Shown here in pieces: positions 10,215-34,599 of a stretch of 34,972 bases of DNA. The notes below the pieces were generated by a model that searched no databases, was not told the origin of the DNA, and saw nothing but the letters and a program-made list of their open reading frames with translations. The DNA comes from Chiloscyllium plagiosum. Lineage: Eukaryota. Each line of letters begins with the position of its first letter. The first letter of the stretch is position 1. The stretch spans positions 1 through 34,972 of the forward strand of contig NW_025214165.1 of NCBI RefSeq assembly GCF_004010195.1, written 5' to 3'. A program made the translations under genes and the position numbers.

Positions 10215-11897
10215 GAGCCTAATGGTGTTAGGGACAAGGTACTGGCATGGATAGAGGATTGGCTGACTGGCAAAAGGCAGAGAGGGGGGATAAAGGGATT
10301 TTTTCTCAGGATGGCAGCTAGTGACTAGTGGAGTTCTGCAGGGCTCAGTGTTGGGACCACAAGTATTCATGTTGTACATTAACGATCTGGATGAAAGAAC
10401 TGAAAGCATTGTGGAAAGGATTACAGATGACACAAAGATAGGTGGATGGACAGGTAGTGGGGAGGCTACAGGCTGGGAGAGTGGGCTTGGACAGGCTGGG
10501 AGAGTGGGCAAGGAAGTGGCAGATGGAATACAATCAGGCAAGTGTGAGGTTATATATTTTGATTGGAGGATTTGAGGTATAGACTTTTTTTTTTAAAAAG
10601 TGAAAGGCTTTGGAAATCTGAAGCACAAATGGATGTGGGAGCCCTCGTTCAGAATTCTCTTACGGTTAATATGCAGGTTCAGTTGACAGGAAGACAAAAG
10701 CAGTGTTAGCATTCATTTCGAGAGGGCTAGAATAAATAGTAGGGATGTACTGCTGAGTCTGTATAAGGCACTGGTCAGATCGCATTGTGAGCAATTTTGG
10801 GTTCTGTATCTAGGGAAGGATAGACTGGCCTTGGAGAGGGTCCGGAAAGGGTTTGCAAGAATGATCCCGGAGATGAAGGGATTGACATATGAGGAGCAGT
10901 TGAAGACTATAGGTCTGTATTCAATGGAGTCCGGAAGGATGAGGAGGAAGCTGATTGAAACTTACAGAATACTGACAGGCCTGGATATAGTGATGTGGAG
11001 AAGATGTTTCCACCGGTAGGAGAGACCAGGACCCGAGGGCACAGCCTCAGGGTGAAGGCACAACCCTTTAGAACTGAGATGAGGAGGAAGAGTGAAAGAA
11101 TTTGAGTATAGGAGTAGGGATGTCTTGCTGGACCTTAGTGAGGCCACACCTTGAGTATTGTGTGTAGCTTTGGTCTCCTAGTCTGAGGAAGGACATTCTT
11201 ACTATTGAGGACTTTTAGCAAAGGTTCACCAGACTGATTCCCGGGATGGTAGGACTGACATAGGAGGAAAGATTGGATTGACTGGGCTTGTACTCGCTAA
11301 AATTTAGAAGAATGAGGGGGGATCTCATAAAAACATAGAATCTTCATGGGACTGGTCAGGCTAGAGGTGGGAAGAAAGTTCCCGATGTTGGAGAAGTCCA
11401 GAACAAGGGGTCACAGTCTAAGGATAAGGGGTACGCCATTCAGGACTGAGATGAGGGAGAAGTTCTTCACTCAGAGAGTCGTGAACCTGTGGAATTCTCT
11501 CCCACAGGAACCTGTTGGGGCCAGTTCATTCAATAGATTCAACAGGGAGCTGGACATGGCCCTTGCTGCTAAAGGGACCAAAGGGAGAGGGTGGGAATGG
11601 GATACTGAGATTGCATGATGAGCCATGATCATAATGAATGGTGGTACAGGCTCGTAGGGCTGAATGTTTTCTATGATTCTATGAATGTCTTTAGCCAGAC
11701 AGTAGTGAATCTGTGGGATTCATTGCTGCAGAGGGCTGTGGAGGCCAAATCATTGAAGATACTTAAGACAGAGATGGATAGGTTCTTGATTGGTAAGAGG
11801 GATCAAGGGCTAAAGGGAATGGGGTTGAGAAACATATCAGCCATGTCCAAATGGTGAACAGACTTGATGGGCTCAATAGCCTAATTCAGCACCTATT
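10215..11897 (+). mobile_element. CR1 ORF2 3' half with a second CR1 3' end nested at ~11093-11682
   Basis: VTSGVLQGSVLGP, YINDLD, TDDTKIGG; sequence after GAGATGAGGAGG (~11088) resumes at ~11685. Confidence 0.85.
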
Positions 11898-11959
11898 TTG
11901 GATGGTTGTACAGACTCATCCCAATATCAATACTCAGCAGCACACACTCAGTGTGTACA

Positions 11960-13073
11960 ATTAGTGAGCAAAATTAGGGCACGTGGTATTGGGGGCAAGG
12001 TACTGACTTGGATTGAAAATTGGCTGGCTGACAGGAAGCAAAGAGTAGTGATAAATGGGTCCCTTTTGGAAAGGCAGGCGGTGACCAGTGGGGTACCACA
12101 AGATTTGGTGCTGGGACCACAGCTGTTTACAATATACATTAATGGTATAGATGAAGGCATTAAAAGTAGTATTAGCAAATTTGCTGAGGATATTAGGAGA
12201 ATACAGGGTGACTTGGACAGGTTAGGTGAGTGGACAGATGTATGGCAGTTGCAGTTTAATGTGGATAAATGTGTGGTTATCCACTTTGGTGGCAAGAACA
12301 GGAAAGCAGATTGCTATTTAAATGGAGTCAAGTTAGGTAAAGGGGCAGTACAACGAGATCTAGGTGTTCTTGGACATCAGTCAATGAAAGCAAGCATGCA
12401 GGTACAACAGGCAATGAAGAAAGCTAATAGCATGCTGGCCTTCATAACAAGAGGAATTGAGTATAGGAGCAAAGAGATCCTTCTGCAGCTGTACAGGGCC
12501 CTGGTGAGACCGCATCTGGAATATTGTGCGCAGTTTTGGTCTCCAAATTTGAGGAAGGACATTCTGGCTATTGAGGGATTGTAGCGTAGGTTCACGAGAT
12601 CAGTTCCCGGAATGGTGGGACTATCATATGTTGGAAGGTTGGAGCAACTGGACTTGCATACACTTAAGTTTAGAAGGATGAGAGGGGATCTGATTGAGAC
12701 GTATAAGATTATTAAAGGATTGGACACTCTGGAGGCAGGAAACATGTTTCCGCTGATGGGTGAGTCCAGAACCAGAGGACACAGCTTAAAAATAAGGGGT
12801 AGGCCATTTAGGACAGAGATGAGGAAAAACTGCTTCACCCAGAGAGTGGTGGGTGTATGGAATGCTCTGCCCCAGAAGGCAGTGGAGGCCAAGTCTCTGG
12901 ATACTTTCAAGAAAGATTTGGATAGAGCTCTTAAAGATAGTGGAATCAAGGGTTATGGGGATAAGGCAGGAACAGGATACTGATTGAGGATGATCAGCCA
13001 TGATCATAATGAATGGTGGTGCAGGCTCGAAGGGCAGAATGGCCTACTCCTGCACCTATTGTCTATTGTCTAT
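11960..13073 (+). mobile_element. Relatively young 5'-truncated CR1 LINE
   Basis: 228-aa and 123-aa ORFs separated by one stop: WIENWLADRKQRV, SGVPQ, LVRPHLEYC, SRTRGH; tail of CTATTGT repeats; possible AATT TSD; in-frame deletion through the FADD motif (~12187). Confidence 0.95.
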
Positions 13074-21515: not shown

Positions 21516-21733
21516 GGTGGTGGGCAAGTTGTTGGGCGGTAAAGACAAGCCAGGGAACTATAGACCAGTGGGCCTGACCTTGGTGGTGGGCAAGTTGTTG
21601 GGCGGTAAAGAGAAGCCAGGGAACTATAGACCAGTGGGCCTGACCTCGGTGGTGGGCAAGTTGTTGGGCGGTAAAGAAAAGCCAGGGAACTATAGACCAG
21701 TGGGCCTGATCTCGGTGGTGGGCAAGTTGTTGG
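21516..21733 (+). repeat. 66-bp tandem repeat, 3.3 copies, derived from CR1 RT (KPGNYRPVGLTSVVGKLL)
   Basis: GGTGGTGGGCAAGTTGTTGG recurs at 21516, 21582, 21648 and 21714. Confidence 0.95.
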
Positions 21734-27291: not shown

Positions 27292-29100
27292 TCTGTCCCA
27301 GTGAGAGTCAGCCCCTTCAGGATCTGTATCCCAGTGAGAGTCAGCCCCTTCAGGATCTATATCCCAGTGAGAGACAGCCCCTTCAGGATCTGTATCCCAG
27401 TGAGAGTCAGCCCCTTCAGGATCTATATCCCAGTGAGAGTCAGCACCTTCAGGATCTATATCCCAGTGAGAGTCAGCCCCTTCAGGATCTGTATCCCAGT
27501 GAGAGTCAGCCCCTTCAGGAACTGTATCCCAGTGACAATCAGCACCTTCACGATCTGTATCCCAGTGAGAGTCAGCCCCTTCAGGATCTATATCCCAGTG
27601 AGAGTCAGCACCTTCAGGAACTGTATCCCAGTGAGAGTCAGCCCCTTCAGGATCTGTATCCCAGTGAGAGTTAGCCCCTTCAGGAACTGTATCCCAGAGA
27701 GTCAGCCCCTTCAGGAACTGTAACCAGTGAGAGTCAGCACCTTCAGGATCTGTATCCCAGTGAGAGTCAGCACCTTCAGGATCTGTATCCCAGTGAGAGA
27801 CAGCCCCTTCAGGATCTGTATCCCAGTGAGAGACAGCCCCTTCAGGATCTGTATCCCAGTGAGAGACAGCCCCTTCAGGATCTGTATCCCAGTGAGAGAC
27901 AGCCCCTTCAGGATCTGTATCCCAGTGAGAGACAGCCCCTTCAGGATCTGTATCCCAGTGAGAGACAGCCCCTTCAGGATCTGTATCCCAGTGAGAGACA
28001 GCCCCTTCAGGATCTGTATCCCAGTGAGAGACAGCCCCTTCAGGATCTGTATCCCAGTGAGAGACAGCCCCTTCAGGATCTGTATCCCAGTGAGAGACAG
28101 CCCCTTCAGGATCTGTATCCCAGTGAGAGACAGCCCCTTCAGGATCTGTATCCCAGTGAGAGACAGCCCCTTCAGGAACTGTATCCCAGTGACAATCAGC
28201 ACCTTCACGATCTGTATCCCAGTGAGAGTCAGCACCTTCAGGATCTGTATCCCAGTGAGAGACAGCCCCTTCAGGATCTGTATCCCAGTGAGAGTCAGCA
28301 CCTTCAGGATCTGTATCCCAGTGAGAGACAGCCCCTTCAGGATCTGTATCCCAGTGAGAGACAGCCCCTTCAGGATCTGTATCCCAGTGAGAGACAGCCC
28401 CTTCAGGATCTGTATCCCAGTGAGAGACAGCCCCTTCAGGATCTGTATCCCAGTGAGAGACAGCCCCTTCAGGATCTGTATCCCAGTGAGAGACAGCCCC
28501 TTCAGGATCTGTATCCCAGTGAGAGACAGCCCCTTCAGGATCTGTATCCCAGTGAGAGACAGCCCCTTCAGGATCTGTATCCCAGTGAGAGACAGCCCCT
28601 TCAGGATCTGTATCCCAGTGAGAGACAGCCCCTTCAGGATCTGTATCCCAGTGAGAGACAGCCCCTTCAGGATCTGTATCCCAGTGAGAGACAGCCCCTT
28701 CAGGATCTGTATCCCAGTGAGAGACAGCCCCTTCAGGATCTGTATCCCAGTGAGAGACAGCCCCTTCAGGATCTGTATCCCAGTGAGAGACAGCCCCTTC
28801 AGGATCTGTATCCCAGTGAGAGACAGCCCCTTCAGGAACTGTATCCCAGTGAGAGTCATCCCCTTCAGGAACTGTATCCCAGTGAGAGTCAGCCCCTTCA
28901 GGAACTGTATCCCAGTGAGAGTCAGCATCTTCAGGAACTGTATCCCAGTGAGAGTCAGCACCTTCAGGAACTGTATCCCAGTGAGAGTCAGCACCTTCAG
29001 GATCTGTATCCCAGTGAGAGTCAGCCCCTTCAGGATCTGTATCCCAGTGAGAGTCAGCACCTTCAGGAACTGTATCCCAGTGAGAGTGAGTAACTTCAGG
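27292..29100. repeat. 33-bp minisatellite, ~55 units (CCCAGTGAGAGACAGCCCCTTCAGGATCTGTAT), followed by a GA tract at 29101-29119
   Basis: Head-to-tail units without spacers; 11-aa periodicity in three ORFs. Confidence 0.98.
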
Positions 29101-30665: not shown

Positions 30666-30901
30666 TGAAATACCTCCACAGAGGCTGGTATCTTGTCAAC
30701 AAATCCCCCTTTATTTACACGTGGAGAAGCCTTGACCCTGATCCCGCTCCCTTACAGCCAACTGTCAGAGTGAGCTGAACCTCTGACACTCCTGTTTATA
30801 TCTGTCAGCCAGGGCTCCCTGATTGGACCAGATTAACAGCCCCAGTCAGGGAACTCATATTCTAGGATGCCTACCTGGTTGGTCTCATTACAATCACAGC
30901 A
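30666..30901 (-). mobile_element. Gypsy 3' LTR, 236 bp
   Basis: Minus strand TG...CA with CCAAT, TATAAA and AATAAA; immediately preceded by polypurine tract GAGGGGAGGGA (30902-30912). Confidence 0.85.
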
Positions 30902-32292
30902 TCCCTCCCCTCTGAGTCTGGGGACGTAGGCCTGATGTTTTTCTCACAGCCTCTCCAGGGTGTTACGCACTGGGTCAGGCTCCTCTGACTCAGCCTCGGA
31001 TACGGGGCAGTCTATCACGGACTGTAGACCACCTCCTGCACCCAGAGTGCCTCTGAGGAAATCCATTCTCTTCTTCAGGCAGTAAAGGTGTTGAGGCTGT
31101 GACATCTGCCGTGTCCATCCCCGACTCCAAGACTTCTTCAACACTAGGTGGGGAGGGAGAACCCGATGGGCTCTCACAGCCTTGCTGACTGTTCCGAAGG
31201 GCCGGGCATGTTTTGCTTCTGCCCGGTTTGCGAATTTGCAGCTTTCATGTGGTCCACATGCTTGTTCAGGATTGTCCCACCTACCCACACTTTGCACGTC
31301 ACGGGACCTAACCTCGCGTTGACCATTCCTCTTACTCATGCCCATGGGTTCGGTACCCAAATACATCCCCTGAAGTAAACTGTCTCTCTCTCTTAGGGGA
31401 GCCTAGTGTCCAGCATTGACGTTCCTGATGCCGTTTCACTCTCCCCGAGCTCCAGGAAGATCAGATTAACCTGGCGTGGAGTCTTCTCCCTAACAACAAC
31501 TGTCCTCATTACACAGCTTGGTATTGAGTGATACTGTAGACTTTTTCGTTAAGCCTGCCTTCAATATTTGGACTGCCCTTTCCAACAGACCATTGGATAA
31601 TGGATGATGACATGCCGAATAGGAGAAAGTTAGAACTGCAGATGTTGGAGATCAGAGTCGAGAGTGTGGTGCTGGAAAAGCTCAGCCGGTCAGGCAGCAT
31701 CTGAGGAGCAGGACAGTCGACGTTTTGAGCAAAAGCCCTTCATCAGGATTGCTATTTGGCTGTACAGAAGTACTTGAATACCCTGCTGGTAAACAATAAC
31801 CCATTGTCTGTGAGCAACACCTCCAGGCATTCGTGTATTACAAAAGACGCACACAGTTCCTCTATCATTGCCCCCAAGTTTGAGGAATTAACTCTGCATT
31901 TTCAGCCACTTTGATTCACTCAATGACTGAGAACGTCAAGCCCATGGAAGGAAAGTCACAGAATTGCCGACATGTAGCCAAGTCCAAAGTTTACCCGACA
32001 GTCCCCATGAATGTGGGGGAGCTGCTGGTGGTAATCTTTGTTCTTGTTGGCACTCTGGGCATTGTCCCATCAATGCAGGTTGCATTGCCATCCAATCATG
32101 GCCTCCAAGCATAAATTCTCACCAACATCTTCATTTTGGAAACTCATAAGTGATCCTGGTGGAGTTCAGCCAGTATCGAGCAGTGACCTATACTCGGGGG
32201 TGTCCAGAGAGTACTAAACCAGATCGGATTCTTCCAGTGGGGACAACATCGGTGATGTATCTGTCAGTGGGAGGCAGCTCAAGGCATCTGCA
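30902..32292 (-). pseudogene. Decayed Gypsy pol: RNase H end and integrase
   Basis: Minus strand NADALSCLP (~32265-32292), GVSKMKMLVRIYAWRP, LEVLLTDNGLLFTS, HPLSNGLLERAVQILKAGL; frameshifted; PLE fragment inserted at 31620-31750. Confidence 0.9.
31620..31750 (-). mobile_element. PLE terminal fragment inserted in the integrase core
   Basis: Matches 6865-6950 and 34680-34810; decayed hammerhead (GAAAC has become AAAAC). Confidence 0.8.
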
Positions 32293-32294
32293 TT

Positions 32295-33000
32295 TGGAAA
32301 GAGAGTCGAGAGTGCGATGCTGGAAAAGCACAGCAGGTCAGGCAGCATCCGAGGAGCAGGAGAGTCAACATTTCGAGTATAACCAGAGTGTTGGATCTGG
32401 GATGAGGTGGGGGGAGGGGAGATCTGGAAACTGGTGAATTCAATGTTGAGGTCATATAGTTGTGAGCTCCTGCTGTGGAAGATGAGGTGTTCCTCCTCAT
32501 GGTGGCCTTGAGTAGGCAGTGGAGAAGGCCCAGAATGGACATGTCATTGGGGGAGTGGGAGGGGGAGTTGAAGTGGATGGCCCAAAGAAGGTGGGGTATG
32601 TTGGTGTGTACAGACCAGAGATGTTCCCCTGATCCATTCTGTGAGCTTGCCTCTGGTGTCTCTGATGTAGAGGAGACTACATCGAGAGCAATGGATGAGG
32701 TTGGAGGATATGCAAATAAGCCTCTGCTGGATTTGAAATGATCCCTTGGGGCCTTGGATGGAGGTGAGGGGGGGAGGTGTGGGCTTTGCACTTCTTAAAG
32801 CGGCAGGGGAAGGTGCCAGGTGTGGAGAGAGGGTTGGTGGGGAGTGTGGACCTAACAAGGGAGTCACAGAGGGAACAGTCCCTATGGAACACAGATAGGA
32901 GTGGGGAGGAAAATATCTTTTCGGTGCTGGAGTCCAACTGTAGGTGATGAAAATGACGGAGAACGATTTAGTGGATTTAGAAATTGGTGGGGCTGGAATG
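32295..33000 (-). mobile_element. Penelope-like element GIY-YIG region, decayed
   Basis: PGTFPC..KKCK, IQGPKGSFQIQQRLICISSNLIHC..C, LYIRDT, HFNSPSHSPNDMSILGLLHC across frames. Confidence 0.88.
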
Positions 33001-33006
33001 TGTTTC

Positions 33007-33143
33007 TCAGAGTGAGCAGAACCTCTGACACTCCTGTTTATATCTGTCAGCCAGGGCTCCCTGATTGGACTAGATTAACAGCCCCAAATAGAGAACTCAT
33101 ACTCTAGGAGGTCTACCTGACTGACCTAGTTATAATCACGACA
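33007..33143 (-). mobile_element. Partial LTR of the same Gypsy family (possible 5' LTR)
   Basis: Aligns with 30765-30901 in the same orientation. Confidence 0.85.
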
Positions 33144-33830: not shown

Positions 33831-34058
33831 CCCCCACCAACCCCACCACCTCCCCACACATGGATAAGGACATGGTTTTCAAACAATTAGAGTTAAAGTT
33901 GCATGTGCTGTGTTCGTGTTGCACACAACCTGAGAGGAGACTGTTAGCTCTACATCAGCCTTCAGACGGAGCAGCTATACTCTATACAGTTCGAAAAAGC
34001 CACAGGAATCACACTTGACTGATACAATCCTTGTATTTAATGTTGTAGTGCAATATAA

Positions 34059-34445
34059 AGCAGAAATTGTCACAAGGTCTGATAGCTTGACCCCACACAA
34101 TATGAGCTCCCTGATCGAGTTTGTTAACCGGGTCCAATCAGGGAGCCCTGGCTGACACATGAAAGGGGTGAGTGGCCACGGCCATACTTGTCTGAAAATG
34201 CCCGATCTTGGAAGCTAAGCAGTCTCCGGCCTGGTTAGTACTAGATCGGAAGACTGCCTGGGAATACCAGGTGTAATAGGCTTTCTTCTTTCTGTTTATT
34301 TCCAAAGGGAAAAAAAGGGTGAGTTTCAGAGATAGTGGCACTCTGAAGTTAACTCGGAAGGAGGCAGAACGAAAGGCAAGGACTGTTCATGTGGAAATAA
34401 AGGGAGACTTGGTGACATGATATCAGTCTCTGTGGAGTTAATTCA
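34059..34445 (+). mobile_element. Solo LTR of the same Gypsy family, split by the 5S insertion
   Basis: Left part GTCCAATCAGGGAGCCCTGGCTGACA and right part AAATAAAGGG...CTCTGTGGAGTTAATTCA match the two halves of the reverse complement of 30666-30901. Confidence 0.85.
34174..34283 (+). pseudogene. 5S rRNA pseudogene (retrocopy), 110 nt, with a 10-nt internal deletion
   Basis: ACGGCCATAC...GCCCGATCT...GGAAGCTAAGCAG...GGCCTGGTTAGTACT...GCCTGGGAATACCAGGTG...TAGGCTT; one of the two GATCT repeats is missing; box C region mutated. Confidence 0.93.
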
Positions 34446-34599
34446 TAAACCAGCTTAACGCAAAGTATATGCCTCATCTATAGAGACGTTACATTGTTGC
34501 ATCCTCCATCACTGACCTTAAGACAGGCCCGAGATAAAACTTAAGCGAAGGAGGATTGGTAGCAGCAAACTTCCTCAAACAATCCTCTCTCATTACAGA

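Follow-up and report, generated by a model that had tools for sequence, protein, structure and literature searches.

A single-locus 5S rRNA-derived copy nested in a solo long terminal repeat of Chiloscyllium plagiosum

Introduction

Within a contig of Chiloscyllium plagiosum (NCBI RefSeq assembly GCF_004010195.1, contig NW_025214165.1, forward strand), a 5S rRNA-derived sequence occupies the TATA position of a long terminal repeat (LTR) at 34059-34445, which raises the question of whether this composite is a one-time insertion or a member of a repeat family. The original prediction for this locus, made from the letters alone, favored a single retrocopy in a Gypsy LTR and named two multicopy options: a vertebrate LTR family comparable to Cassandra, and a short 5S-derived SINE. 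The window is the whole stretch of DNA that was analyzed (34,972 nucleotides), and all coordinates refer to it.

In the available text of PMC10886601, Cassandra of plants and Ajax of ribbon worms are 5S-bearing TRIMs (TRIMp3) with two LTRs, a primer site, a purine tract, and conserved boxes; 1,114 LTRs are given there for Ajax-1_LiLo. SINE3 comprises 5S-headed SINEs, as do MEG-RS/RL and Ped-1 according to the accessible part of PMC10946416. For membership in SINE3, the portions at hand of four papers (PMC4494074, PMC7245038, PMC5786205, PMC10946416) call for a shared tail or family, and the same portion of PMC7245038 states, with respect to 7SL, that an internal deletion common to dispersed copies separates SINEs from plain retrocopies. 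For L1, the available sections of PMC5322556 describe a TT/AAAA target, 8-30-nt duplications, and 555 tailless 5S retropseudogenes in human.

Structure of the locus

The locus consists of three nested layers, as the 5S copy lies within a solo LTR that lies within an older repeat. The features of the locus, followed by two sister LTRs used for comparison, are these:

33952-34055, plus strand: left part of the older interspersed repeat that hosts the solo LTR; 75% identity over 104 nt to 30353-30250, where there is no LTR
34056-34059, plus strand: TAAA, left-hand copy of what is probably a 4-nt target duplication around the LTR, seen in the sequence; the uninterrupted host site has a single TAAA
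34060-34173, plus strand: 5' part of the solo LTR, up to the TATA-equivalent stretch; aligned to the sister LTRs at 30897-30666 and 33139-33007
34161-34173, plus strand: target-site duplication on the left of the 5S insertion, either 12 nt (start at 34162) or 13 nt (start at 34161, T first); 11/12 or 11/13 identical to 34312/34313-34324
34174-34283, plus strand: 5S rRNA-derived copy from nt 1, lacking 10 nt near 34208 and with a heavily changed Box C; based on Rfam and on comparison with full-length 5S loci L003 and L004
34284-34309, plus strand: pyrimidine-rich 3' extension of 26 nt that ends in AAAGGG and has no run of four T; unique to the locus by depth at 34286
34310-34324, plus strand: A7 run, continuous with the right target-site duplication (34312/34313-34324); based on the sequence and on a 5S-less contig of sequencing run X5
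34325-34445, plus strand: 3' part of the solo LTR, with AATAAA, and TTCA at its end; compared with the sister LTR over 34321-34445
34446-34486, plus strand: TAAA (right LTR duplication), then the older host repeat again; 34 identities, 7 mismatches, and 2 gaps to the uninterrupted host copy
30666-30897, minus strand: sister LTR A, without 5S, the empty-site reference; preceded directly by a purine tract and integrase remnants
33007-33139, minus strand: sister LTR B, of which just the 5' part is present, without 5S; 88% identity over 133 nt to sister LTR A

The outermost layer, an interspersed repeat, is unbroken at 30353-30250 and is split by the LTR at 34060-34445, which has TAAA on each side. 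Alternatively, position 34059 is an altered first base of the LTR rather than part of the TAAA duplication. With the two LTR flanks of the insert aligned separately to the sister LTR, the match on the left extends up to the TATA stretch (60 identities, 12 mismatches, 3 gaps); on the right, the match is picked up in register over 34321-34445 (93 identities, 30 mismatches, 5 gaps). Both flanks meet in the TATA stretch of the sister LTR, the Rfam match starts at 34174, and the empty site reads as it had been quoted (30800-30781, minus strand); the coordinates of the original prediction were right. Because no purine tract precedes the LTR at 34060-34445 and no TGG-type primer site follows it, this LTR is solo.

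The sister LTRs (30666-33139, minus strand) flank ~2.1 kb that includes integrase remnants interrupted by other repeats, and the pair is probably one internally deleted LTR element. Within 2 nt after sister LTR A starts TGGTATCA (30665-30656, minus strand), which we take to resemble a tRNA-Met primer site; with a purine tract before it and TGGTATCA after it, sister LTR A may be the shared LTR of a former tandem pair. Two of five fragments of the integrase remnants beside sister LTR A matched Pfam models, both below the Pfam cut-offs (rve, E 0.16; rve_3, E 0.0097). Atlas leads for fragments of the sister element pointed to integrase core and C-terminal clusters (0.82-0.89), and a PDB search with one integrase fragment returned 0 matches. 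The order of integrase, purine tract, and LTR fits the Gypsy label given to the host LTR as well as BEL or retroviral elements; a Gypsy assignment is plausible. A search of viral contigs for the LTR-core motif returned 0 matches.

Rfam model RF00001 matched 34174-34282 on the plus strand with 52.8 bits (gathering score 38; E 1.9e-08; model positions 1-120). This is the sole Rfam match in the whole 34,972-base window, and its alignment has a single ~10-nt gap, in the loop C/helix III region. Upstream of 5S nt 1 there is LTR sequence and no 5S gene spacer, and the direct repeats AAAGGGGTGAGT (34162-34173) and AAAAGGGTGAGT (34313-34324) flank the insert with 11 of 12 positions identical (11 of 13 if one nt longer); the predicted precise 5' end and flanking duplication are thus both present. 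An equally good match at the same spacing arises at 13 of the 30,955 positions of the window that lie outside tandem arrays, or at 95 of 32,273 positions with only the big array taken out.

The A run is 7 nt long (34310-34316), and four of these (five if the duplication is 13 nt) are within the duplication. An A-tail had been predicted; the run exists, but once the duplication is subtracted only 2-3 A's remain as a tail. In one X5 contig without 5S, 34157 is followed by three letters in place of the insert and then by 34311; because the contig re-enters the window there, the A run is largely target sequence.

With up to 6 mismatches of 25 allowed, the 3' extension matches nothing else in the window. 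Comparison of this tail with 5S gene spacer, which the original prediction had proposed, gave no match to the dominant present spacer, and the deep 5S contigs stop short of 34286. Positions 34295-34304 of the tail are a perfect 10-nt inverted copy of the AATAAA stretch of the LTR (34392-34401), which 2 of 300 random segments reach in a post hoc comparison. A tail made by template switch to the local LTR was not accepted; it rests on this post hoc match.

Genome contigs yielded four loci, three of which match Rfam. L003 and L004 contain the complete 5S; L001 is cut by the end of its contig to a 3' part, which is uninformative on the deletion; and L002 is not 5S. Short contigs of bacterial assemblies carry L001, L003, and L004; these are 5S genes of animal type, flanked by GC-rich sequence or T runs, and most likely represent contamination.

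Copy number

We compared 33900-34560 at 80% likeness with four of 24 listed runs, namely three DNA runs, X1 and X5 (organism A, two studies) and X11 (organism B), and an RNA run, X21; copies <80% alike, or lost to contig filters, would escape this comparison. In X1, one 990-nt contig (depth 9.31) runs unbroken through the whole composite, including both junctions, with 16 substitutions and a 16-nt gap. X5 has the same gap, in two contigs that abut and together cover 34128-34560. Because the contigs of both runs carry the composite, it is real and older than the ~2.5% by which the window diverges from these samples.

An assembly artefact was ruled out, as the same composite occurs in contigs of two other samples. 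The 16 nt missing from the matching contigs of X1 and X5 are at 34530-34545 of the window. Given this gap and a divergence of ~2.5% from the organism-A contigs, the genome of the window is not identical to organism A.

Depth at 34286, just past the 5S end, was 9.31 in X1, 7.14 in X5, and 0 in X11, and the X1 and X5 values are those of the locus's own contig. Depth in the LTR core bin was 95,884 in X1, 151,717 in X5, and 172,098 in X11, so that in X1 and X5 the LTR core is 10,000-20,000 times deeper than the 5S-tail-LTR junction; summed depth does not equal copy number, yet a 10,000-fold contrast is unambiguous. Depth over 5S positions reached 12,871 in X1 and 16,243 in X11. Each of the 15 joints listed (of 60 in total) leaves out the insert. 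In the three DNA runs, respectively, 286, 195, and 298 contigs exit the window at 34157 into an empty LTR that has the TATA stretch. Measurement is more indirect at the left junction, which is drowned in LTR depth; the next bin bounds it at ~11-16 single-locus equivalents, and among the pieces listed (longest 24 of 7,202) none crosses it except the locus's own. In X11 (~85% read), there was no depth over the outer flanks of the locus, and no orthologous empty site was seen.

In the runs compared, the composite and its tail are single-locus, in agreement with the favored option of the original prediction. The multicopy Cassandra-like option did not hold at 80% likeness, as depth at the right junction is that of one locus in X1 and X5, and 0 in X11.

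Promoter boxes and expression

Box coordinates on the locus were taken from the Xenopus 5S promoter, which we assume to correspond. Relative to L001, the locus differs at 3 of 15 positions in Box A, at 0 of 6 in the intermediate element, and at 6 of 18 in Box C, five of them in its first 11 positions. The deep 5S contigs of the host differ from the window at 34223 and 34227. Within Box C, other contigs differ from the window at 34243, 34246, and 34250, and by this comparison the changes of the window at those positions look private. From what is known of TFIIIA binding, a Box C changed like this one is unlikely to function. The 10-nt deletion also reduces the spacing from nt 1 to Box A, and the TATAAA of the LTR family is kept in neither copy of the duplicated stretch. 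Run X21, a poly(A) single-cell library blind to Pol III output (~2% read), gave 82 reads, all on LTR parts and none ≥99% alike. The 5S copy is probably dead.

Origin of the insertion

With moderate confidence, we interpret the locus as a one-off processed pseudogene of 5S rRNA, in which a read-through transcript was inserted by an L1/Tx1-type LINE enzyme and then decayed. A Pol III transcript of a 5S gene would have extended ~25 nt beyond the mature end, and an L1/Tx1-type enzyme would have reverse transcribed it in place (target-primed reverse transcription) from an endonuclease nick in the A-rich TATA stretch of the LTR, T/AAAAA. Such a nick would explain the TATA position with no need for a promoter swap to have been selected. 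The 10 nt may have been dropped by slippage between two short direct repeats within 5S, in the template, during copying, or later, and after insertion the copy would have decayed, with loss of Box C. Because the host LTR is solo, the 5S copy would never have been carried by an LTR element.

The putative target T/AAAAA is close to the L1 consensus TT/AAAA, and the 12-13-nt duplication falls within the 8-30-nt range of L1. An RTE-type insertion was rejected; there is no T stretch upstream of the duplication, contrary to the RTE signature given in the available text of PMC6007223. The look of the repeats in the window suggests a cartilaginous fish as host, and the dominance of L2 and CR1 in one cartilaginous-fish genome, as described in the accessible part of PMC5381603, counts against the L1/Tx1-type enzyme. 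Two features of the 3' end, the 2-3-nt A tail and the lack of a match between the tail and the dominant 5S spacer, count against this interpretation of the locus. According to the portion at hand of PMC3123226, 5S falls into two classes with poly-T ends in elasmobranchs, and the tail could thus come from a spacer that is older or minor. A pure one-off does not predict the 10-nt deletion in at least five other contigs.

Alternative origins

In L003 and L004, 10 extra letters are present at the deletion site, between two short direct repeats. The deletion recurs in at least five other contigs of two species (X1 record 5 and X11 records 9-12, among the longest 24 of 7,202 pieces), each with 24-29 letters aligned to its left, 61-65 to its right, and a net length difference of 0 or -1. 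Aligned within 34180-34273, these carriers have 11-15% mismatches and unrelated flanks. The tail is absent from all five, and their alignments end at 34269-34273, which may reflect truncation or mere clipping at mismatches. If full-length 5S is forced across the deletion ungapped, 18 letters there contain 12 mismatches, which exceeds the total of 10 mismatches in record 10. X1 record 5 and X11 record 11 have the same span, the same gaps, and 538 letters past the match; by these features they look orthologous, which would place at least one deletion-bearing locus in both species. The two contigs of the locus in X5 overlap by exactly 30 letters (34193-34222) that straddle the deletion; a second sequence with the same word would produce such an overlap. 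Over Box C, X11 records 9-12 account for 42 of ~131 depth units. Searches with 5S motifs, with or without the deletion, returned 0 matches in metagenome contigs and 0 in viral contigs.

The recurrence reflects either a small, old 5S-derived lineage or repeated slippage between the two short direct repeats. If the carriers descend from one master, they represent a new small 5S retroposon lineage; if not, they mark a slippage hot spot in 5S copies. Under the former, a single 5S master that already lacked the 10 nt, either a variant 5S gene or a minimal 5S SINE, would have given rise to a small family of old, scattered copies that includes the locus, with the insertion mechanism unchanged and the template shared. 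We consider this unlikely, albeit the most serious competitor. It draws on the five contigs aligned across the deletion despite their divergence and unrelated flanks, on the gapless 5S mismatches exceeding the total of record 10, on the X5 contig break astride the deletion, and on the share of Box C depth held by the four X11 records; however, none of the five contigs has the tail and all end at 34269-34273, the bin over the 5' part of 5S holds only ~11-16 single-locus equivalents, keeping the longest pieces biases the listing toward deletion carriers, a deletion between direct repeats is able to recur, and the Box C changes at 34243, 34246, and 34250 look private to the window. For the SINE option of the original prediction, the outcome is therefore divided: the deletion recurs, but the tail is unique to the locus. 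It is similarly doubtful that a deletion-bearing 5S master in the host lineage seeded an undescribed minimal 5S SINE in at least two species and that one member hit the LTR TATA box in sense; if true, the locus would be a frozen first step of the kind proposed for the birth of Cassandra and Ajax, gone no further.

It is improbable that break repair captured, at the DNA level, a piece of a 5S gene plus some of its 3' spacer and that staggered ends gave rise to the duplication. The 3' extension past the mature end, the near absence of an A tail, and the post hoc inverted match between the tail and the LTR AATAAA stretch (2 of 300 random segments) would fit such an event; however, the 5' end is exactly nt 1 without upstream spacer, and the length and A-rich start of the duplication are typical of LINE insertion.

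It is very improbable that the locus is a solo LTR of a vertebrate Cassandra/Ajax-like family with a 5S promoter in its LTRs: although the 5S is in the LTR sense direction at the place of the TATA box, most of Box A and of the intermediate element survives, and in the available text of PMC10886601 known elements leave many solo LTRs and are proposed to originate from a 5S SINE landing in an LTR, the right junction is, at 80% likeness, single-locus in both organism-A runs and absent from organism B, the X1 contig is unbroken across both junctions, the LTR family lacks 5S in every joint listed (15 of 60), there is no second LTR, primer site, or purine tract (a solo LTR by itself would not exclude a family elsewhere), and Box C is damaged, whereas promoter boxes are conserved in Cassandra and Ajax according to the same text.

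Comparison with known elements

The locus resembles the L1-type 5S processed pseudogenes described in the available sections of PMC5322556 in its start at nt 1, its target duplication beginning in an A run after T, its dispersed position, and its decay. The tailless pseudogenes in those sections are 3'-truncated, whereas the locus extends 26 nt further at its 3' end, has a very short A tail, and lacks 10 nt internally. As in Cassandra and Ajax, 5S-derived sequence lies within an LTR in sense, and the locus resembles the founding event proposed for them; in contrast to those elements as described in the accessible text, it is single, in a solo LTR without primer site or purine tract, its Box C is unconserved, and its insertion duplication is still visible. 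With SINE3 it shares a 5S head with internal Pol III boxes, and its deletion, which recurs in several dispersed copies, may be a mark of the SINE type, but it has no body or LINE-related tail common to other copies, and very few copies were seen. The Helenus elements, tRNA-bearing TRIMs found in hosts including fish and coelacanth (available text of PMC10886601), are similar in being vertebrate LTRs with an insert derived from a Pol III gene and a 4-nt duplication around the LTR; in the locus, however, the insert is 5S rather than tRNA and is not a family feature. Among titles and abstract starts, subscription papers, Repbase, and Dfam aside, there was no report of a 5S-bearing vertebrate LTR family or of the 10-nt deletion.

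5S processed pseudogenes are common, a hit on an A-rich endonuclease site in one of thousands of LTR copies is expected, and in that respect the locus matters little. Its three nested layers make it a marker, and its anatomy is the one from which Cassandra and Ajax are proposed to have started.

Other features of the window

A 33-nt tandem array at 27296-29086 (54.4 copies, 96% matches) has long stop-free frames on both strands, and the Pfam matches within it are repeat-driven. Reverse transcriptase remnants matched RVT_1 at 11880-12584 (E 1.7e-07) and at 21516-21733 (E 0.00093), the latter within a 66-nt unit repeated 3.3 times.
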